Origin: Parcubacteria group bacterium LiPW_30
Lineage (GTDB): Bacteria; Patescibacteriota; Minisyncoccia; Phycocordibacterales; VMEP01
Assembly (NCBI GenBank): GCA_007375595.1
Contig: VMEP01000001.1
Span: 255,883-319,882 of the forward strand
Length of the DNA stretch: 64,000 nt
Direction: 5' to 3'
Positions 3,169 to 55,127 of this stretch are shown in pieces. The stretch's first letter is position 1. Every line of letters begins with the position of its first letter. The position numbers were made by a program, and so were the translations under genes. A model generated the notes under the pieces. It was not told the origin of the DNA and did no database searches. It was given only the letters and a program-made list of their open reading frames with translations.

Positions 3169-4011
3169 ATGAAAACCTACAAACCAACATCACCATCAAG
3201 AAGAAGCATGACAGGCGTAGTATATCGCAATGTTATCACCCATACAGAGCCATTAAAAGCTCTTACCAAGGGTCGCAAGCGAGATAGTGGACGCAACTCT
3301 GCTGGACGCATTACCACTCGCCATAAAGGAGGTGGGCACAAAAGACTCTATCGTGATATAGATTTTAAATATAATAAATTTGATATTCCAGCAAAGATTG
3401 CGAGCGTTGAATACGATCCAAACCGCACTGGTTTTATAGGTCTCGCTGTTTATAAAGACGGAGAGAAGCGTTATGTGCTTTTACCTAAATCTGTTGGAGT
3501 AGGTAACTCTTTTATCGTTAGTGAAACTGCATCGATAACCCCAGGAAATCGCATGCCACTCAAACAAGTTCCTGTTGGTACTTTTGTTTACAACGTTGAA
3601 CTAAAACCAAAGGGTGGTTCAAAAATTGCGCGCGGGGCTGGTGTTTATGTGGAAGTTGTTGCAAACAACGACGGTTACACGCACTTAAAAATGCCATCTA
3701 CAGAAGTTCGAAAAGTTTCTGATAAATGTTACGCATGTATCGGGCAGGTTTCAAACGAAGAACACGGACTTGTAAAAATAGGAAAAGCAGGACGTTCTCG
3801 ATGGATGGGTATTCGCCCAACAGTTCGTGGAACAGCTATGAACCCTGTTGATCACCCACACGGTGGAGGTGAAGGACGCCAAGGACGCGGTCTTCGACGT
3901 GCAAAGAGCAAGTGGGGCAAGCCAACAGGCAAGGGCCAAAAGACACGCGCACCTAAAAAATATTCAAACGTCTTTATTGTTTCAAGACGTAAAGTTGGAA
4001 AGAAACGATAA
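3169..4011 (+). CDS. rplB: 50S ribosomal protein L2
   Basis: Hallmark GRNSAGRITTRHKGGGHKRLYR and C-terminal Gly/Arg-rich tail. Confidence 0.95.
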   Translation: MKTYKPTSPSRRSMTGVVYRNVITHTEPLKALTKGRKRDSGRNSAGRITTRHKGGGHKRLYRDIDFKYNKFDIPAKIASVEYDPNRTGFIGLAVYKDGEKRYVLLPKSVGVGNSFIVSETASITPGNRMPLKQVPVGTFVYNVELKPKGGSKIARGAGVYVEVVANNDGYTHLKMPSTEVRKVSDKCYACIGQVSNEEHGLVKIGKAGRSRWMGIRPTVRGTAMNPVDHPHGGGEGRQGRGLRRAKSKWGKPTGKGQKTRAPKKYSNVFIVSRRKVGKKR

Positions 4012-4027
4012 TAATATAGCTATAAAC

Positions 4028-4060
4028 AAAAAATCTCGTCACATGGCGAGATTTTTTATT
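4028..4060 (+). terminator. Terminator directly after rplB
   Basis: aaaaaatctcgtcacatggcgagattttttatt. Confidence 0.5.
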
Positions 4061-4062
4061 AC

Positions 4063-4145
4063 GAGTTTACTTTTATCTTTACGGGTATAGTATTTCTCTT
4101 AGTTTACTTCTTTAATTTTTTGGCGGAGGAATCATGTCAAGAGAA
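4063..4145 (+). repeat. Direct repeat copy 1 (~80 bp leader: promoter-like TATAGTAT, RBS GGAGGAA, ATG-TCA-AGA)
   Basis: Near-identical to 5081..5162; each precedes a different small ORF starting MSR. Confidence 0.8.
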
Positions 4146-4550
4146 TCAGATGGCATCCTTTTTTCAGCAGTGTGCGGACATTGCGGCGAGTGTTGGGATG
4201 ATCATGAAAATCCGTATCAGTATGGTTGGACGGAAGACATGATGAAACAACGTCAGCCTGGCTTTAAAAAGTCGCTTTATGATTGCCCGGGGTTTCAGGT
4301 CAGAAAGATTGATTTGCCAGACATCATACTTGTTTCTGCAAGACGATTGTTTTTTGGAGAACCCCAATTACCTGTTTTTTGGAAATATCCCGGAATCAAG
4401 TCTGCCGCCGAGCACTGCTTGAAACAAAATCAAGCGAAGTGGGATTCGGCCGAAAGGAAACAGCGGTGGTCAATGTATAGTGACTGTGTGGTCCTTATTG
4501 GCGTTAACCCCAAGACAGGAACATCTGTCGTTGTTGATTGTGGTAGCTGA
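4134..4550 (+). CDS. Hypothetical protein, CxxCxxC N-terminus, GC-rich cassette gene
   Basis: ORF with RBS in duplicated leader; ~50% GC against ~38% background. Confidence 0.45.
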   Translation: MSRESDGILFSAVCGHCGECWDDHENPYQYGWTEDMMKQRQPGFKKSLYDCPGFQVRKIDLPDIILVSARRLFFGEPQLPVFWKYPGIKSAAEHCLKQNQAKWDSAERKQRWSMYSDCVVLIGVNPKTGTSVVVDCGS

Positions 4551-4610
4551 TAAGCCAATTATTGTGTACAAGGTCAGATTTCCGGACGAGTAGTTCGTCG
4601 GTGTAAGATA

Positions 4611-4650
4611 ATCGGCGCAGGGTTCTCACCCCGCGCCGATTTTTATTTTA
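4611..4650 (+). terminator. Rho-independent terminator
   Basis: atcggcgc...gcgccgat stem followed by ttttatttt. Confidence 0.6.
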
Positions 4651-4722
4651 CCAAAGGAAACTTACTTGGTCGTTTACAATTTTTTCAAGATTGCGTAGTA
4701 TCACACATAGAGGGAAAGTTCG

Positions 4723-5016
4723 ATGTTTTCTTACTGGGGGATTTCACCAGTGGACGACAAATTTAAACTGTTTCATGAGATTTCTCGGTTTTTACGTACC
4801 GCCCCACAGCCTGCAGTGATTGCGTGGAGAGAAGGGTGGAGCAAAATTACCCTACATCCCGACGGGTTTGAGTCGTGGGATTCGTGTGGGTGTTGTACAA
4901 CTGGATACTCTCCGGGGTGGTATTGCGAAAATCCCAAGGGGTCTTACCGTTGGATCTGTGGTCCCAAAGGAGAGAGCGTCAAAGGAAAAGCCCCAGAAGG
5001 ACTTTGTTGTTTGTGA
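4723..5016 (+). CDS. Hypothetical Cys-rich small protein
   Basis: RBS GAGGGAAAG before ATG; overlapping alternative frame 4820..5032 cannot be excluded. Confidence 0.35.
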   Translation: MFSYWGISPVDDKFKLFHEISRFLRTAPQPAVIAWREGWSKITLHPDGFESWDSCGCCTTGYSPGWYCENPKGSYRWICGPKGESVKGKAPEGLCCL

Positions 5017-5040
5017 AAACCTGGGTGACTAAAATAAAAA

Positions 5041-5074
5041 CCTGCAAAACCATCTCGGTCCTGCAGGTTTTTCT
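5041..5074 (+). terminator. Rho-independent terminator
   Basis: cctgca...tgcagg stem then tttttc. Confidence 0.55.
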
Positions 5075-5080
5075 GTTATG

Positions 5081-5162
5081 GGTTTACTTTTATTCCTGCT
5101 GGTATAGTATTTCTCTTAGTTTACTTCTTTAATTTTTGGCGGAGGAATCATGTCAAGACTGA
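5081..5162 (+). repeat. Direct repeat copy 2 of the cassette leader
   Basis: Matches 4063..4145 with few substitutions. Confidence 0.8.
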
Positions 5163-5398
5163 GAATTACAAGCGCCCGGGTGCTTGCGAAGATTGCTGGT
5201 CCAGAATGTGGAATTCATTGTCAGGTCAGAATCACTGCACCACTCAACAGTGTTTTTCAGGGAATTACTGCACCAAGTCTCTGGTTGGCAGAAGTGAGCA
5301 GACTTTTCCCCGAAATTCCAGAAAACCATCTTTCCATGGCGCCTGACGATAGTTTCGCTGTGCTCGCGGACCGTATCGCCGAGTACTTGAATCGCTGA
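5150..5398 (+). CDS. Hypothetical small protein (second MSR... cassette gene)
   Basis: Same leader/RBS as 4134 ORF, terminator downstream. Confidence 0.4.
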   Translation: MSRLRITSARVLAKIAGPECGIHCQVRITAPLNSVFQGITAPSLWLAEVSRLFPEIPENHLSMAPDDSFAVLADRIAEYLNR

Positions 5399-5425
5399 CG
5401 AATAACTTCGCCAGAAGAATGAAAG

Positions 5426-5456
5426 AAGCCCTGCGCATGCGCAGGGCTTTGTTTGT
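5426..5456 (+). terminator. Rho-independent terminator
   Basis: agccctgcgcatgcgcagggct followed by ttgtttg. Confidence 0.6.
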
Positions 5457-5741
5457 AGGTGGCCCCGCCGATCGGGGCAGACCTCCTGGTATCTCGTCTG
5501 ATCTAGCTCTCCTTGCTTGGCCGTGCAAGTATGATGCCTGTCGTTTTGACGAGCGGACAACGCCCACCGGAGTGGCGTATTCCAGGGTGAGGGACATGAT
5601 TACAACGACTTGCCTCCTTTACTCATATCCTAAGTCCGATTAGGGAGCAGCATACATCGAGGGGAATATGTGGGCGGGGCGCCCGACGACCCCAAGATTA
5701 GTCACCAAGTCCTTTTTCGATATTATCTGGTTTAGTCTGGT

Positions 5742-5769
5742 TTGACAATGGTTTTTCTTCTGATAATAT
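5742..5769 (+). promoter_or_regulatory. sigma70-like promoter re-starting the r-protein operon (TTGACA - 16 nt - TG-n-TAATAT)
   Basis: Consensus hexamers read directly, 60 nt upstream of rpsS. Confidence 0.5.
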
Positions 5770-5831
5770 GCACGACAAGCTCACTTGGGCTGTTTTTGTT
5801 TGTTTTTCATTAATTATACTAATTACTACAA

Positions 5832-8896: not shown

Positions 8897-9449
8897 AAAC
8901 ATGAAAATAAAAACGACAAAAGAAAAAGAAATAGAAGCCTATAGCAAACTAAAGGAGGAATTTGGCTATAAGAATAAAATGGCTGCACCAAAACTTTCTA
9001 AAGTTGTTATTTCTGTTGGTGTCGGTAATCTTTTGAAAAAAGACAGAACTAAAGGGGATTTCGTAAACGGCAGACTCGGCAAGATAGCTGGACAGAAATC
9101 AGTTGCTCGTGGGGCAAAAAAGGCTATTGCAACCTTTAAATCTAGACAAGGCGACATTATCGGCTACATGGTTACACTTCGTGGAGCACGCATGTACTCT
9201 TTCCTTGAAAAACTTTTCAATGTTGCGCTTCCTCGCACTAAAGACTTTCGTGGTATAAACCGGACCGCTGTTGATGAAATGGGTAATCTTACGATTGGTA
9301 TTAAAGAGCACACAATTTTCCCAGAAACAGCCGATGAAGAACTAAAAGATGTTTTTGGAATGGCTATAACACTTGTTAGTACCGCAAAAAGCAAGAAGGA
9401 AGGAATGGCTTTTTACGAATTACTCGGAACTCCGTTTAAGAGAAAGTAG
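8886..9449 (+). CDS. rplE: 50S ribosomal protein L5
   Basis: L5 core (DFRGI...YSFLEKL...). Confidence 0.95.
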   Translation: MKYKNMKIKTTKEKEIEAYSKLKEEFGYKNKMAAPKLSKVVISVGVGNLLKKDRTKGDFVNGRLGKIAGQKSVARGAKKAIATFKSRQGDIIGYMVTLRGARMYSFLEKLFNVALPRTKDFRGINRTAVDEMGNLTIGIKEHTIFPETADEELKDVFGMAITLVSTAKSKKEGMAFYELLGTPFKRK

Positions 9450-9472
9450 AATATTTTTACCTAAAAACAAAA

Positions 9473-9506
9473 AACCCTCTCTGTTTACAGAGAGGGTTTT
9501 TTGTTG
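9473..9506 (+). terminator. Rho-independent terminator after rplE
   Basis: aaccctctctgtttacagagagggttttttgttg. Confidence 0.65.
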
Positions 9507-9595
9507 ACAGATAAAAGCTAAGGAGTAGTCTTTTAAATAGATGTATGTAGTACGGCGTTTCAATCAAAATCGTTTCTATACAAAAGAGGTGTGCC

Positions 9596-10048
9596 ATGGC
9601 AAAGAAGGTGGTGTCAGAAGGAGTGTTGGCGGCAAGGGCAAATGAGGCCGCCAGGAGAAAGTGCAGAAAGAGCCTGATCGCGTGGAGCGCTCACCCGATT
9701 TCGAAGGAGTCATTCCCCGATGACTTCGCGGATGGGTTTGATTTCGCCGACCGGGCTGGTTCAGGGGCTTTTGAAGCTTTCGCCGGTCGGCTTGAGACGA
9801 ATCTCGCCTCAGCGCCGTGTGCTCAGTGTTCAAAGGATTGTCCCGGTTCACACGGGGAATGTCTCCTCGATGTTGACCCTGGGGCACTTCAGGACCAGGA
9901 AGATCTCGCAGTCGAGGAGGCCGAAATGAGCCCCTTCGTGTTGGCTGCGAGGCGTGCTGGTTTCGACCATGATACCGCCTTGCGCATGGAGGCCGAAATG
10001 GAAATTGAGATGAGTCGTCTTTCTGGGGAAATGGACAGCATCCATTAG
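9596..10048 (+). CDS. Hypothetical acidic protein, GC-rich (~58%) cassette gene inserted between rplE and rpsZ
   Basis: RBS AAGAGG then ATG; own terminator downstream; compositional outlier. Confidence 0.4.
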   Translation: MAKKVVSEGVLAARANEAARRKCRKSLIAWSAHPISKESFPDDFADGFDFADRAGSGAFEAFAGRLETNLASAPCAQCSKDCPGSHGECLLDVDPGALQDQEDLAVEEAEMSPFVLAARRAGFDHDTALRMEAEMEIEMSRLSGEMDSIH

Positions 10049-10093
10049 GCAGACCTCTGTCAAAATTGGTTGTTCGCTCTTCGGAGACGTTTA

Positions 10094-10129
10094 CGCCCCG
10101 ACACGATGTTTGTGTTCGGGGCGTTTTCT
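10094..10129 (+). terminator. Rho-independent terminator
   Basis: cgccccgacacgatgtttgtgttcggggcg followed by ttttct. Confidence 0.6.
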
Positions 10130-10148
10130 ATTGTTAGTTTGTGCCAGT

Positions 10149-10176
10149 TTGACATTAAAGGGCGTTTTGGTAGTAT
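10149..10176 (+). promoter_or_regulatory. sigma70-like promoter (TTGACA - 16 nt - TAGTAT) reading toward rpsZ
   Basis: Hexamers read directly. Confidence 0.45.
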
Positions 10177-10353
10177 ATGCGGGAGCTCATTTGAGCCAGT
10201 TTTTTGGGAAACTATCCGTTCTGATCCGTTTTTCTCCTTTAGGGCTTCGGCATTAAAGAATAAAAACGAGACATCGAAAGGGAAAGTCCCGAATTTAAAT
10301 TATTCCGACGAACGATTAACGTGCTGTCGGAATAAAAAGAAAACTTTTTATTT

Positions 10354-10539
10354 ATGGCAAAAACATCAACTAGAGTTCGCGCGTTAAAGACGCCAAAATT
10401 CAGCACACGAAAAGTAAATCGTTGTTTTCGTTGTGGACGTAAGCGTGCTTTCATGCGTGATTTCGGTCTTTGTCGTATTTGTTTCCGTGAATTAGCCAAC
10501 GATGGAAAATTGCCTGGCATTAAGAAATCATCCTGGTAA
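10354..10539 (+). CDS. rpsZ: 30S ribosomal protein S14 type Z (zinc-binding, 61 aa)
   Basis: CFRCGR...CRIC zinc ribbon, typical short S14. Confidence 0.9.
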
Positions 10540-10547
10540 AAAATATT

Positions 10548-10943
10548 ATGACCACTGACCCTATTGCAGACATGTTAATTCGTATAAAGAATGGTAGTAA
10601 AGCCAAAAAGGAAACGGTGCTTATTCCTTATTCACAGTTACGGTTTTCTATCGCTCAAATCCTACTTCGTGAAGGATATCTTTCATCTGTTACAAAGAGA
10701 CTACGAAAGGCATCTCGATTACTTGAGGTTGGTTTGATTTATGATGGAAACGGAACACCAAAAGTCACAGACGTAGAGCGTGTTTCGAAATCATCAAAGC
10801 GTATTTATGCCGGCGTTCGTGATGTTCGTCCCGTTAAATACGGTTACGGTATTATGGTTCTTTCAACTCCAAAAGGTCTTTTGACTGGAGATGAGGCGCG
10901 AAAAGAACATGTCGGAGGAGAAGTAATGTTTAAAATCTGGTAA
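10548..10943 (+). CDS. rpsH: 30S ribosomal protein S8
   Basis: MTTDPIADMLIRIKN. Confidence 0.95.
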   Translation: MTTDPIADMLIRIKNGSKAKKETVLIPYSQLRFSIAQILLREGYLSSVTKRLRKASRLLEVGLIYDGNGTPKVTDVERVSKSSKRIYAGVRDVRPVKYGYGIMVLSTPKGLLTGDEARKEHVGGEVMFKIW

Positions 10944-23329: not shown

Positions 23330-23700
23330 GTTTTTTAATGTTCGCCCTTAAAATGCGCGTATAATTTTTTGCTAAAAATTTACTATACTCGCCTCGCCAG
23401 GCTCCGTAATGCATTTTAAGGGCGAACATAGAGATATTAAATACAAAAAACTTTGCTGAATTTTCGCTCTGCTCGATTCGTCAATCTGCGCAAGGTATTT
23501 TAGGGGTGTATGCAGGAAATAAAATACTTAGAAATGCACGTATAATTTTCTGCTGAAAATTTACTATACTCGGCTCGTCAGCCTCCGTCTCTCAATTGCT
23601 TCACTTATCGCAATTGAGCATCGCACTGCGCCCGCCTGCGCGTACACGCGGGCAGGCAATGTTTTTAAATACAAAAAATTGGATTTTTGAAGAAGGAGGA
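23330..23700 (-). mobile_element. Cluster of two partial MITE-family copies, minus orientation
   Basis: 23341-23430 bounded by ttcgcccttaaaatgc / gcattttaagggcgaa inverted repeats; 23536-23690 is the reverse complement of modules seen at 54961-55105 (ctcaattgcgataagtgaagcaattgagagacggaggctgacgagccgag). Confidence 0.55.
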
Positions 23701-23756: not shown

Positions 23757-24827
23757 TTACTTATCGGCGGGCGTGGTGGCTAGCCTCTTCAGGTTTTGTT
23801 CGGCTTCTTCCGTTTGCCGTTCTGCTTCCCGAATTGCCGCGAGGCGGGCGTATTCAGCCTTCCTTATTTCATACAGCTTAAGGAATTCCGCCGCCTTTGA
23901 GTTTACGAGACAGGCTTCTTCGACGGTAGTCGCTAGGCGAGTTTTACCGACAGGGGATTTGGTTGTGCGGAGTTCTGTTCGCAGAGAGATTTCTTTGAGC
24001 TTTGCCAAACATGGTTCATCAAGCTCTTCGAAACCCCAGAAACTGCTTCGCATACCATAAATATCCCACAGCAGGTCAATCTTGCCGATGGAGGACAGCA
24101 CTTCAAGCATCCAGAGTTTTGCCGAGTTGATGTTTTTGCGCATCTCGGCATTTTGCTTTGCTTTCTCTTCTGGACGGATATGCCACGACTTGATTTCTTC
24201 TCCCTTCCACTTGAAAACAAACGCTGCGAGTCGCAGTAGGAAATTGATGGCCTGTTGTTCGTTGTGGTTGGAGGCCTCTAGTCCAGATAGGTTGCGAACA
24301 GCCCCCCCTTCGACCGCGAAAAAGTTCATGAGGATTGGAAGGATTCGCCCTGAAACAAAGTCAGTGCCCCATGGGTCTCTGCTCCTGTGTTGCACGGAGA
24401 GGGAGTTCTCAATCTCGACCTTGAAGAAGTTCTGGGCGAGTACGTCAAACGCTTTGCGTGCCAACTTCTGGCGAAACCATGCTGGGTTTCCTGGTTGGCG
24501 ATTTCCGTACCTGTCGTAGCCGATGACATATCCTTTGCCTTCATCTGACTCAAGATGCCACTGGGAATAACCACGTTCCCAACCATCAGCAATGGCGAAG
24601 TAGGTTTCCAGGCGATCAGCATGGTCGTACTCTTGTTCGCCATGACTGAAACGCTCAAACCCCACATTGAAACCCTCGTGGAGCAGTCCGGCCAGCTGGT
24701 GCGTGGTGGTGGACTCTTGCCAGCAGGTTCGCCACTCGTTCCAATTACGGGGCGGGCGAATTTCGCGCACCATGAGGGGGTGTGGTAGAGCACTTACGGC
24801 ACTTACGAGATCTTCAATTTGCGACAT
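23757..24827 (-). CDS. Hypothetical 357-aa protein, GC-rich (~52%), coiled-coil C-terminus
   Basis: Start moved to internal Met (MSQIEDL) because the longer ORF overlaps tRNA-Ala; RBS AGAGAGG upstream. Confidence 0.5.
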   Translation of the reverse strand: MSQIEDLVSAVSALPHPLMVREIRPPRNWNEWRTCWQESTTTHQLAGLLHEGFNVGFERFSHGEQEYDHADRLETYFAIADGWERGYSQWHLESDEGKGYVIGYDRYGNRQPGNPAWFRQKLARKAFDVLAQNFFKVEIENSLSVQHRSRDPWGTDFVSGRILPILMNFFAVEGGAVRNLSGLEASNHNEQQAINFLLRLAAFVFKWKGEEIKSWHIRPEEKAKQNAEMRKNINSAKLWMLEVLSSIGKIDLLWDIYGMRSSFWGFEELDEPCLAKLKEISLRTELRTTKSPVGKTRLATTVEEACLVNSKAAEFLKLYEIRKAEYARLAAIREAERQTEEAEQNLKRLATTPADK

Positions 24828-24929
24828 TTTGTTGCCTCTCTTTCTTTCTTGGGTTATGCCCCGTACTGTGACGGGACGAGGTACTGCTATGCCAAATATA
24901 CCTCGGGGCTTGATTAAGTCAAACTGTTG

Positions 24930-25005
24930 TGGTGGACCATACCGGATTCGAACCGGTCGCCTCATCCATGCCATGGATGCGCTCTACCAAATGAGCTAAT
25001 GGCCC
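24930..25005 (-). tRNA. tRNA-Ala (anticodon GGC), CCA encoded
   Basis: Cloverleaf folded by hand: acceptor GGGCCAT/ATGGTCC, D-arm GCTC..GAGC, anticodon loop ATGGCAT, T-loop TTCGAAT. Confidence 0.8.
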
Positions 25006-25305: not shown

Positions 25306-25451
25306 AGTTATATAGTCTAGCCTATTTTAGGGTAAATACACAAGGAGGAAGGGGAATATACCCGTTTGACCTTTCTGTGATTATCATGTAGTAGTTAGTG
25401 TTAGTAATTGTTGAATTTTCAATCAACGGGATAGAAAAGGAAAAAACGATC

Positions 25452-26861
25452 ATGCACATTTCAACTCGCGGTTTGGCTCCGGCGGTTAATTTTGCCTACA
25501 CGGTGCTCAAGGGAATTGCGCCAGATGGTGGTTTATACGTTCCGGAGAAGATTTTCCAGTTTGCCGAAGATGACATTCGTCGGCTTGCTGGACTTTCCTA
25601 TACGGAGGTTGCCAAAATTGTCATGGATCGGTTTGCTCCGGACATGGACAAAGTCGCGCTTCACGGCGCGATAGACAAGGCTTATACCCCCGACGTTTTT
25701 GCAAACGTTACCGAAAAGGATGACAATCCCATCGACATCGTCCCTGTGCGCCATCTTGGTCAAGATTTGTATCTTGCTCGGCTGAGCAATGGGCCAACTC
25801 TCGCATTCAAGGATTTGGCGTTGCAGTTGCTTGGCCACCTCTTCGAAATCGTTCTCGACGGGAAACCACTCAACGTGCTTGGGGCGACGTCGGGCGACAC
25901 GGGGTCGGCGGCTATTCATGCCATGCTCGGAAGAAAGGATATACGCGTTTTCATGCTCTCTCCGCATGGCAGGATGAGTCAATTTCAATCGGCTCAGATT
26001 TTGGGCGTCAATGACCCGATGATTCACAACATTTCGGTCAACGGTTCGTTCGACGATTGCCAAGACGTGGTGAAGGCGGTTAGCGGGGACGCTAGCTTCA
26101 GGGAGGAGTACAACATCGGCGCCGTAAACTCAATCAATTGGGCAAGGGTTGCCGCGCAGGTGGTCTACTACTTCTTTGTTTGCTCCCGCATCCGTGGTCG
26201 TGATGGTGGCCAAATTGACGTCGCCGTCCCGACAGGGAATTACGGCAACATCTATGCGGCCTGGGTTGCGAAAATGATGGGGTTGCCGATTCGTCGGCTG
26301 ATTCTCGCAACCAACGAAAACGATGTTCTGCATGAGTTTTTCACAACGGGCATTTACAGGCCCAGACTGAAGACCATCGAAACGTCGAGTCCGTCGATGG
26401 ACATCACCAAGGCGTCGAATTTCGAGCGTTACGTTTTTGACGTTTTTGGCGGCAACTCAACCAAGGTTGCAAGGCTGTGGGCGGCACTCGACAAGACGGG
26501 GCAGTTTGATTTGTCGCACAGGATGGCGAAGATTCGCGAGACAGGTATTACTTCCTGCGCAGTTCAGCAGGAACAAGTCGCCGAGACCATCAACTACGCC
26601 TTCGTGAAGTACGGCATCGTCATCGACCCCCACACGGCGGTAGCAATGCACTCGGCAATTAATACGCAGCAGTCCGGCGTGCCGATGGTCGTGATGGAGA
26701 CAGCTCAGCCCTGCAAGTTTGACCTTGCTATAAAGCAGGCGCTTGGTTTCACTGTATCGCCTCCTTCGAGCATGAAGGACCTTATGTCCACAAAGCAGTT
26801 CTTTACGCAGATGGATCCAAACGTCGAAGCGACCAAGGAATTCATTCGCGCGCGGGCATGA
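25452..26861 (+). CDS. thrC: Threonine synthase
   Basis: PLP-enzyme motifs GPTLAFKD and ATSGDTGSAA; GC ~55-60%, well above background. Confidence 0.85.
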   Translation: MHISTRGLAPAVNFAYTVLKGIAPDGGLYVPEKIFQFAEDDIRRLAGLSYTEVAKIVMDRFAPDMDKVALHGAIDKAYTPDVFANVTEKDDNPIDIVPVRHLGQDLYLARLSNGPTLAFKDLALQLLGHLFEIVLDGKPLNVLGATSGDTGSAAIHAMLGRKDIRVFMLSPHGRMSQFQSAQILGVNDPMIHNISVNGSFDDCQDVVKAVSGDASFREEYNIGAVNSINWARVAAQVVYYFFVCSRIRGRDGGQIDVAVPTGNYGNIYAAWVAKMMGLPIRRLILATNENDVLHEFFTTGIYRPRLKTIETSSPSMDITKASNFERYVFDVFGGNSTKVARLWAALDKTGQFDLSHRMAKIRETGITSCAVQQEQVAETINYAFVKYGIVIDPHTAVAMHSAINTQQSGVPMVVMETAQPCKFDLAIKQALGFTVSPPSSMKDLMSTKQFFTQMDPNVEATKEFIRARA

Positions 26862-54940: not shown

Positions 54941-55127
54941 CCAAAATACCCCCAAAAAACATTGCGCAGTGCGACTGGCTCAATTGCGATAAGTGAAGCA
55001 ATTGAGAGACGGAGGCTGACGAGCCGAGTCGGGGTAGCGCAAATTTCTAGCAAGAAATTATGCGTGACCGAGCATAGTAAATTTTTAGCAAAAAATTATA
55101 CGCGTTTTTTGGGGGTATTTTAAAAAA
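54941..55127. mobile_element. MITE-like element, long copy; perfect 18-bp terminal inverted repeats
   Basis: ccaaaatacccccaaaaaac ... gttttttgggggtattttaa; internal modules shared with 1116, 23536-23690 (reverse complement), 59842-59937, 57740-57800. Confidence 0.65.

Follow-up and report, generated by a model that had tools for sequence, protein, structure and literature searches.

We analysed a 64,000-nt stretch of the genome of Parcubacteria group bacterium LiPW_30 (assembly GCA_007375595.1, contig VMEP01000001.1, positions 255,883–319,882; hereafter the window), in which an open reading frame (ORF) for a 150-aa protein of no known family lies between the ribosomal-protein genes rplE and rpsZ. 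The most informative result concerns the surroundings of this ORF rather than the ORF itself. The promoter and the structured leader RNA of rpsZ recur throughout a class of bacteria from the Candidate Phyla Radiation (CPR), and the spacer that precedes them serves as a slot for accessory genes.

The explanation that we favour, with somewhat better than even confidence, combines a split spc cluster, a native leader, a permissive slot and an exchanged cassette. In the Nomurabacteria/Paceibacterota-like CPR class the spc cluster would be naturally split after rplE, so that rpsZ and the later genes would have their own conserved promoter (P2) followed by a structured leader. This leader would be autoregulatory, with S8, encoded by the second gene of the unit, as its most likely ligand. 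The short spacer from the rplE stop codon to P2 would form the permissive slot, taken up by unrelated accessory genes in different species. In the clade of the window it would hold one self-contained cassette (the rplE terminator, a promoter of its own, a 5′ untranslated region (5′UTR) with a ribosome-binding site, the 150-aa gene and its own terminator), which may have been imported and repeatedly replaced by homologous recombination that made use of the highly conserved ribosomal genes on either side.

The original prediction, made from the letters of the window, had read the same region as a recent insertion of foreign cargo that interrupted a contiguous operon and brought along a promoter to restart transcription towards rpsZ. 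All the features it named (the ORF, both terminators and the TTGACA-16-TAGTAT promoter) are present. Its view of the ORF as foreign accessory cargo was supported, and that of a recent interruption with a restart promoter was not.

The first evidence comes from a survey of the 62 nearest species representatives, all of them Nomurabacteria/Paceibacterota with a uL5 at most 72% identical to that of the window. The distance between rplE and rpsZ varied from 129 to 2905 nt (median 628); it was above 100 nt in 62 of 62 species and above 400 nt in 35. At the six neighbouring junctions, from rpsQ to rplR, the medians were 6–28 nt or the genes overlapped (rplX–rplE), and there were almost no outliers, with two distances above 400 nt at rplX–rplE. 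Thus the assumption that the junction is normally contiguous is false for this class.

Upstream of rpsZ, at the same distance in these 62 representatives, we found a promoter of the P2 type (TTGACt-17-TGcTAGTAT). In some species its −35 element begins directly after the rplE stop codon. The same promoter occurs in about 60 species, including those in which a gap of 129–190 nt is free of cargo, and so it was not carried in by an insert. The promoter and the leader are almost certainly native to rpsZ.

It is worth stressing how these signals were judged. As a class, promoter-like sites in the window are not above chance (33 versus 27.5 ± 5 in shuffled sequences). We therefore took P1 (the promoter of the ORF) and P2 to be real because they are conserved in related genomes, and not because they match a consensus. 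Promoters, terminators and the division into separate transcription units are all predicted, which weighs against the explanation given above.

Comparison of 58 leaders (alignment A4) with RNAalifold yielded a long hairpin with compensatory changes at 13 of 17 pairs. After two pairs had been added, 96.3% of cells were paired, versus 79% in shuffles and 31–53% in slid controls; compensatory changes were then seen at 15 of 19 pairs, and none of 500 shuffles reached the score. A covariance model of the leader gave a single match in the window, at the leader itself (65.6 bits), and in held-out loci, the distant L102 included, it matched only just upstream of rpsZ. In general, these results make it very probable that the predicted RNA structure is real. 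In Rfam 15 the leader has no match, the hits obtained being spurious hairpin matches that fell on the rplE terminator, and the element is apparently undescribed.

Several smaller features of this leader may be recorded here. It contains a second, near-invariant internal loop, UUCUCC (10234–10239) opposite AGAA(U/A)AA (10257–10263), and the CUCCUU in it is similar to the end of 16S rRNA that holds the anti-Shine-Dalgarno sequence; in most species rpsZ has no obvious Shine-Dalgarno sequence. The hairpin at the 5′ end (10185–10196) was considered as an attenuator and rejected (−4.8 kcal/mol, z = −0.1). The additional hairpin directly ahead of the rpsZ start codon has no second copy in the window. 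L007, L008, L099 and L101 carry it and L001, L003, L011 and L098 lack it, a polymorphism that does not follow the relatedness of rplE.

In E. coli, S8 is the repressor of the spc operon and acts at rplE by autogenous translational repression. In the window, rpsH (10548–10943), the gene for S8, is the second gene of the rpsZ unit. The core of the leader has the consensus 5′-U(G/A)AUC-3′ opposite 5′-GA[UA]U(C/U)-3′. Its bulged A is invariant in 58 of 58 leaders; U precedes it in 53 of them and C in 5, the window being among the latter. Of the flanking pairs, one is UA in all 58 and another CG in 57; a third is AU in 55 leaders and GC in 3, and a fourth is GC in 33, AU in 24 and CG in one.

We compared this core with the stretch A595–C599/G639–U644 of 16S rRNA, with the numbering checked on E. 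coli rrsH. The S8 site of 16S helix 21 consists of U598-A640, C599-G639, the bulged U641, the invariant A642, G597-C643 and A596-U644 (PMC4176348). The leader shares with it a bulge of two bases, of which the second is an invariant A (the equivalent of A642), and the pairs UA and CG, which equal U598-A640 and C599-G639; covariation preserves the two pairs that come next. As with the E. coli spc operator for S8, it is a structured mRNA element of the spc cluster, in a unit that contains rpsH, with a helix that carries a small asymmetric loop.

Other details differ. Two of them count against S8 as the ligand: the equivalent of G597-C643 is A-U in 55 of 58 leaders and G-C in only 3, and there is no conserved unpaired A595: at the equivalent position 42 leaders have U, 10 have C and 6 have A, and the base is often paired. 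Additionally, unlike the E. coli operator, the leader is located upstream of rpsZ, about 750 nt 3′ of the rplE stop codon, and not at the rplE start; a promoter of its own precedes it, and its scaffold is a long hairpin with the second UUCUCC/AGAAAAA internal loop. We infer that the leader is an autoregulatory ribosomal-protein leader. S8 is a candidate ligand by resemblance, with a chance that we put just short of even.

Regulation of spc outside Gammaproteobacteria was described as unknown in a 2024 review (PMC10931766). Comparative genomics has yielded 20 candidate ribosomal leaders (Eckert and Weinberg 2020, PMC7247131). The leader described here resembles them in that it is a covariation-supported 5′UTR element upstream of ribosomal genes in one lineage. 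None of the 20, however, precedes rpsN or rpsZ, has S8 or S14 proposed as its ligand, or comes from Patescibacteria. Tentatively, and with a little less confidence than for the ligand itself, the leader might be a new S8- (or S14-)responsive autoregulatory element that controls the latter half of spc over a large CPR class, the first outside Gammaproteobacteria. The operon split that it creates would then turn the junction into a landing pad, on which lineages exchange small accessory genes, the one for the four-cysteine protein included, by recombination via the ribosomal genes. In any case, this covariation-supported RNA, with its S8-like core and its spread over a large class of uncultivated bacteria, is a directly testable candidate for spc regulation.

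The same 62 genomes reveal what occupies the slot before P2. The cargo includes seven pilin-like proteins, two reverse transcriptases, MazE/MazF, a SocA antitoxin, AAA_14/DUF4143, nucleotide kinases, a dCTP deaminase and a sigma factor; in several species the first cargo gene is GC-rich. None of the cargo in the 62 species is related to the family of the 150-aa ORF. Judging by this survey, the rplE–rpsZ junction is an integration hotspot between core genes. Insertions there would be tolerated because one native unit ends before the slot and the promoter of the following unit comes after it.

Known hotspots and flexible islets likewise combine one fixed junction and conserved flanks with varied, often compositionally odd genes, toxin–antitoxin systems and reverse transcriptases among them. 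The junction studied here differs in that it lies inside a ribosomal-protein cluster, has no integrase, tRNA or attachment repeats, and carries only one to three small genes. A cluster that is usually deemed most stable and is used as a phylogenetic marker therefore holds a fixed slot with turnover of accessory genes, which matters for binning, marker-gene concatenation and the annotation of CPR genomes.

In two of the species (L018, 3745–4353 and 5216–6244; L031, 3692–4360 and 5223–6236) the slot contains a GC-rich ORF of about 200–220 aa (GC content at third codon positions (GC3) up to 0.72) and, after it, an RVT_1 reverse transcriptase of about 340 aa. This pair could be a diversity-generating retroelement or a retron.

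In the window itself, the slot holds the 150-aa ORF, whose start ATG is preceded by AAGAGGTG. Among 5.8 billion proteins searched there were 10 homologues, with identities of 63–93%, none of them named and none with a Pfam domain. In codon alignments of its orthologs the ratio of non-synonymous to synonymous substitution rates (dN/dS) was 0.10–0.36 at dS up to more than 2, and the alignment gaps fell in whole codons, which means that the frame is translated. The ribosome-binding site and start codon are also conserved in relatives. All this indicates, with near certainty, a real gene under purifying selection.

The predicted product is acidic (pI 4.67, 28 D+E versus 16 K+R) and, we infer, cytoplasmic. 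Invariant among its homologues are C75, C82 and C89, the motif APC..C...CPGS...CLL and, at the C-terminus, EMDSIH, while C78 is nearly so (alignments A1 and A5). When 1.84 billion cluster representatives were searched with a profile, only 14 clusters came back, all unnamed; the distant homologues share the core D.F...D......EA...R ... APC..C....CPG[ST]..G.CLL and differ in the rest. A second profile search with a wider alignment brought no further members and no names among the 5.8 billion proteins, and sequence searches of Pfam, PHROGs, PADLOC, NCBIfam and the Protein Data Bank (PDB) with the ORF and the distant homologues gave no match. No relative was found in the viral contigs searched, and thus there is no sign of a phage origin. 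As sampled by these searches, the family is very small and unannotated, and is found only in Paceibacteria-like CPR genomes.

The four-cysteine motif makes metal binding fairly likely. AlphaFold2 models built from 11 and then 21 sequences reached a predicted local distance difference test score (pLDDT) of 63 and 69, respectively, and were confident only in the N-terminal helix and the C-terminal helical pair. The cysteine core was modelled poorly (pLDDT about 50), so that the case for metal binding comes down to the motif. A Foldseek search of the model, whose core is unreliable, found no match in the PDB. The distant member P0020 sits 55 nt 3′ of a gene for a cation-efflux (cation diffusion facilitator, CDF) transporter (L104, 131–1597), a weak hint of a metal link for the family. 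We have little confidence in any specific cellular role, and until a function is found the orphan protein is a minor item.

The cassette contains further elements that the relatives share. The −35 element of P1, a promoter absent from the original prediction, overlaps the T-tract of the rplE terminator. Its TTGACA and TA.TCT are invariant in seven loci (alignment A3), and the distant L096 and L094 show the same arrangement. Only three of the six positions of the −10 element agree with TATAAT, but it fits the TAGNNT type of the lineage. In the rplE terminator, the scan match, obtained on both strands, comprises the stem 9477–9496 and the T-run, and it is conserved in relatives (alignment A3). 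The presence of a terminator belonging to the ORF was also borne out. It was missed by a simple scan owing to a loop-size limit and was found by folding; UUUUCU lies directly 3′ of the hairpin, and changes in its conserved stem preserve pairing (alignment A2).

Hairpin elements with the ends CCGGGTAGTRRAWTTTGG...CCAAAWYTMCTACCSGG were seen just before TTGAC promoters at both cassette boundaries in L094 (1–346, 862–1139). Such an element also stands before the rpsZ promoter in L053 (about 3540–3660), with TTTGAC apparently duplicated on both sides. These hairpins have the look of a small mobile element, one that either targets promoter −35 boxes or brings them along.

The close homologues are all encoded between rplE and rpsZ, in L001–L013 and in four JGI (Joint Genome Institute) contigs (L098–L101). 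These four extra loci came from a metagenome scan with a narrow alignment; the wide alignment had no usable conserved stretch. Among the five distant homologues, three occupy the same slot, namely P0018 in L096, P0013 in L095 and P0017 in L102, and the order of elements is that of the window: terminator, promoter, gene, terminator, promoter, leader. The uL5 fragments of L095 and L096 are only 71–76% identical to that of the window, and the cluster layout of L102 differs. The other two are located elsewhere, one near infC-rpmI-rplT and one at the cation-efflux gene described above. With 10 of 10 close homologues and three distant ones in one position, the insertion is neither recent nor private to this genome.

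In L009 (6469–6846) and L010 (3313–4030) the sequence diverges fully from the other contigs past the ORF terminator, and a further ORF of at least 176 aa follows before the contigs end. This indicates that the strain probably has a second cargo gene in the slot.

The composition of the ORF agrees with the view of it as foreign cargo. Its GC content is 56.7% and its GC3 0.60, whereas rplE, rpsZ and rpsH have 39–41% GC and a GC3 of 0.28–0.32. In all orthologs of the clade the GC3 is 0.55–0.60 versus about 0.30 in rplE, and amino-acid content does not account for the difference. Of the two features that would together have told against the original prediction, conservation of position was thus found and native codon usage was not. 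The homologue in the GC-richer L102, on the other hand, has a GC3 of 0.52, compared with 0.52–0.55 in rplE, rpsZ and rpsH of that locus, and L104 is similar. The composition of the family is therefore native in GC-richer relatives and foreign to the present genome, which has roughly 40% GC. We consider the chances of an import from such relatives to be about even.

Additional information on the history of the cassette comes from its alleles. An alignment of the window with L003 shows 90–98% identity across rplX and rplE and on into the spacer as far as 9565; identity falls to 58–70% in 9566–9940 and returns to 93–98% from 10016. The corresponding dS values are 1.24 for the ORF, 0.33 for rplE and 0.095 for rplX. 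Six loci in which rplE is 93–95% identical at the nucleotide level split into two classes of ORF allele that are 71–74% identical, as distant as alleles from lineages with 83–86% rplE identity. The ORF proteins are 63–70% identical where uL5 is 99% identical. Of the flanking genes, rplE encodes 182 aa, as in relatives, and the rpsZ protein is identical in relatives.

Additionally, the allele of L012 (2945–3403), L013 and L098 (2428–2880), which come from three data sets, has a frameshift near codon 33, because of which the called protein P0002 starts in another frame. This allele may be a pseudogene, which suggests that the gene is dispensable.

Capsule and O-antigen loci are known for cassette-type allelic replacement through conserved flanks. 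The ORF resembles them in its divergent alleles within near-identical backgrounds and in sharp boundaries at conserved flanks; unlike them, the cassette is a single 150-aa gene. Allele replacement by recombination is, on these alignments, a probable explanation. Natural competence has been reported for Saccharibacteria (PMC10187176). Since divergent alleles stand in near-identical backgrounds with sharp boundaries, and the composition is native elsewhere, import followed by repeated replacement of the cassette is the most likely history.

Some points weigh against this history. The dS of the ORF could be raised in part by a weaker constraint on codon usage than that on ribosomal genes, no donor allele was found, and locking of the position over deep divergence fits vertical inheritance of a ribosome-tied gene as well. 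Such a gene would be native, lineage-specific and functionally tied to the ribosome, its GC richness arising from amino acids and selection on the mRNA, and its product could be an assembly or metal-handling factor for neighbours such as the zinc-ribbon S14. The idea draws on a position kept across homologues only about 30% identical, on purifying selection, on a strong-looking conserved promoter belonging to the gene, and on the metal hints, namely a four-cysteine motif beside the gene of a zinc-ribbon protein and the one distant homologue 55 nt after the cation-efflux gene. However, the ORF is missing in all 62 nearest species representatives, where the slot is empty or holds unrelated cargo. 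It also evolves far faster than its flanks, shows an allele pattern discordant with them, is frameshifted in the L012/L013 and L098 assemblies, and has a GC3 that amino acids do not explain, and two of the distant homologues lie elsewhere. We consider vertical inheritance of a native gene to be unlikely, although it is the strongest competitor of import and replacement.

The recent insertion envisaged in the original prediction, in which horizontally acquired DNA broke a contiguous operon and supplied a terminator and an outward promoter for rpsZ, is improbable. The foreign GC and GC3, the terminator and promoter that are indeed there, and the lack of a known family would all suit it. Nevertheless, it is largely refuted by the ORF occupying one slot in every relative sampled and in the genomes of distant homologues, and by the promoter and leader of rpsZ being present in about 60 species, those without cargo included, at a junction that is never contiguous in this class. 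Moreover, no inverted or direct repeat pair brackets 9450–10148 and no copy of this block exists elsewhere in the window; domain searches of the ORF and its homologues found none of the integrase, transposase or other mobility domains that a mobile element would be expected to have.

Targeted hypermutation, for example by a diversity-generating retroelement, might also have produced the local divergence of the ORF in place of allele exchange, considering that identity falls between sharp limits, both within a single gene, and that reverse transcriptases occur in the slot of two other species. We regard this as very improbable: the 64-kb window contains no second copy of any part of the ORF that could act as a template repeat, and the differences, which affect synonymous as well as non-synonymous sites, are spread across two thirds of the gene. 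Finally, GC-rich DNA does yield long ORFs on both strands (minus strand 9576–9887 and 9848–10063) and the ORF matches no known family, yet the idea that the frame is open by chance, in a GC-rich segment that is non-coding or specifies a structured RNA, is refuted by dN/dS well below 1 at saturated dS, together with whole-codon gaps, invariant motifs and a conserved ribosome-binding site and start, and its probability is negligible.

Table 1. Elements of the rplE–rpsZ junction (positions in the window; promoters, terminators and transcription units are predicted)
Element	Position	Strand	Basis or details
rplE (uL5), last gene of the upstream transcription unit	8901..9449	+	Pfam Ribosomal_L5 and L5_C
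Symmetric (A-run/T-run) intrinsic terminator after rplE	9466..9505	both	−27.4 kcal/mol, z = −8.2; followed by U6
Promoter P1 of the ORF, TTGACA-16-TAGTCT	9504..9531	+	Read from sequence
Shine-Dalgarno-like AAAGAGGTG, ending five bases before the ORF ATG	9582..9590	+	Read from sequence; conserved in alignment A3
Accessory gene, 150-aa acidic protein with four conserved cysteines, no known family	9596..10048	+	Translation, homologues, dN/dS
Intrinsic terminator of the ORF, long GC-rich hairpin with U-rich tail	10093..10131	+	10093–10124 folds at −22.2 kcal/mol, z = −5.0
Native rpsZ promoter P2, TTGACA-16-TAGTAT, TG-extended	10149..10176	+	Scan, 10/12 consensus positions
Conserved structured leader of the rpsZ-rpsH-rplF... 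unit, long hairpin with conserved internal loop	10197..10304	+	Alignment A4, covariation
S8-site-like core of the leader, UGAUC 10222–10226/GACAUCG 10270–10276, bulge C10272-A10273	10222..10276	+	Column counts
Extra hairpin just before the rpsZ start codon	10300..10335	+	36 nt, −16 kcal/mol, z = −4.4
rpsZ (zinc-ribbon type uS14), first gene of the downstream unit	10354..10539	+	Pfam Ribosomal_S14

The ribosomal cluster of the window is of the CPR type, with about 40% GC and no rpmD between rpsE and rplO. The original prediction had it interrupted three times, each time by a terminator and a re-promoter. This stood in so far as the rplB–rpsS gap is variable too; it did not hold for rpsZ, whose promoter is native and was not brought by the insert.

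The rplB–rpsS gap (4012–5831) contains a block of about 1017 bp (approximately 4143–5068) with two small cysteine-rich ORFs (4134–4550 and 4723–5016) that match no known family. The block is found in the window and in L001 and is absent from the closest relative, L007, as well as from L003 and L009. A direct repeat of about 90 nt (4052–4142 and 5069–5158), with a promoter, a 5′UTR and a start (ATGTCAAGA), flanks it on both sides. This suggests that recombination between the repeated modules, each with its promoter, added or removed the block.

The element between rpsJ and rplC, which had been called a miniature inverted-repeat transposable element (MITE), is indeed repeated (stretches 1116–1213, 23345–23619 and 54941–55127). 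Copies at 76–100% identity, direct and inverted, lie elsewhere in the window (repeat families D7, D13, I1, I2, I4 and I7). On its 3′ side we read TTGCAT-16-TGTATAAT (about 1272–1299), followed by a leader of about 70 nt before rplC.

Other GC-rich stretches (52–58% GC) are located at 23757–24974 on the minus strand, with a 405-aa ORF, and at 25398–26861 on the plus strand, with a 487-aa ORF that, by eye, resembles a threonine synthase. Thus GC-rich genes in the window are not confined to the ribosomal cluster.

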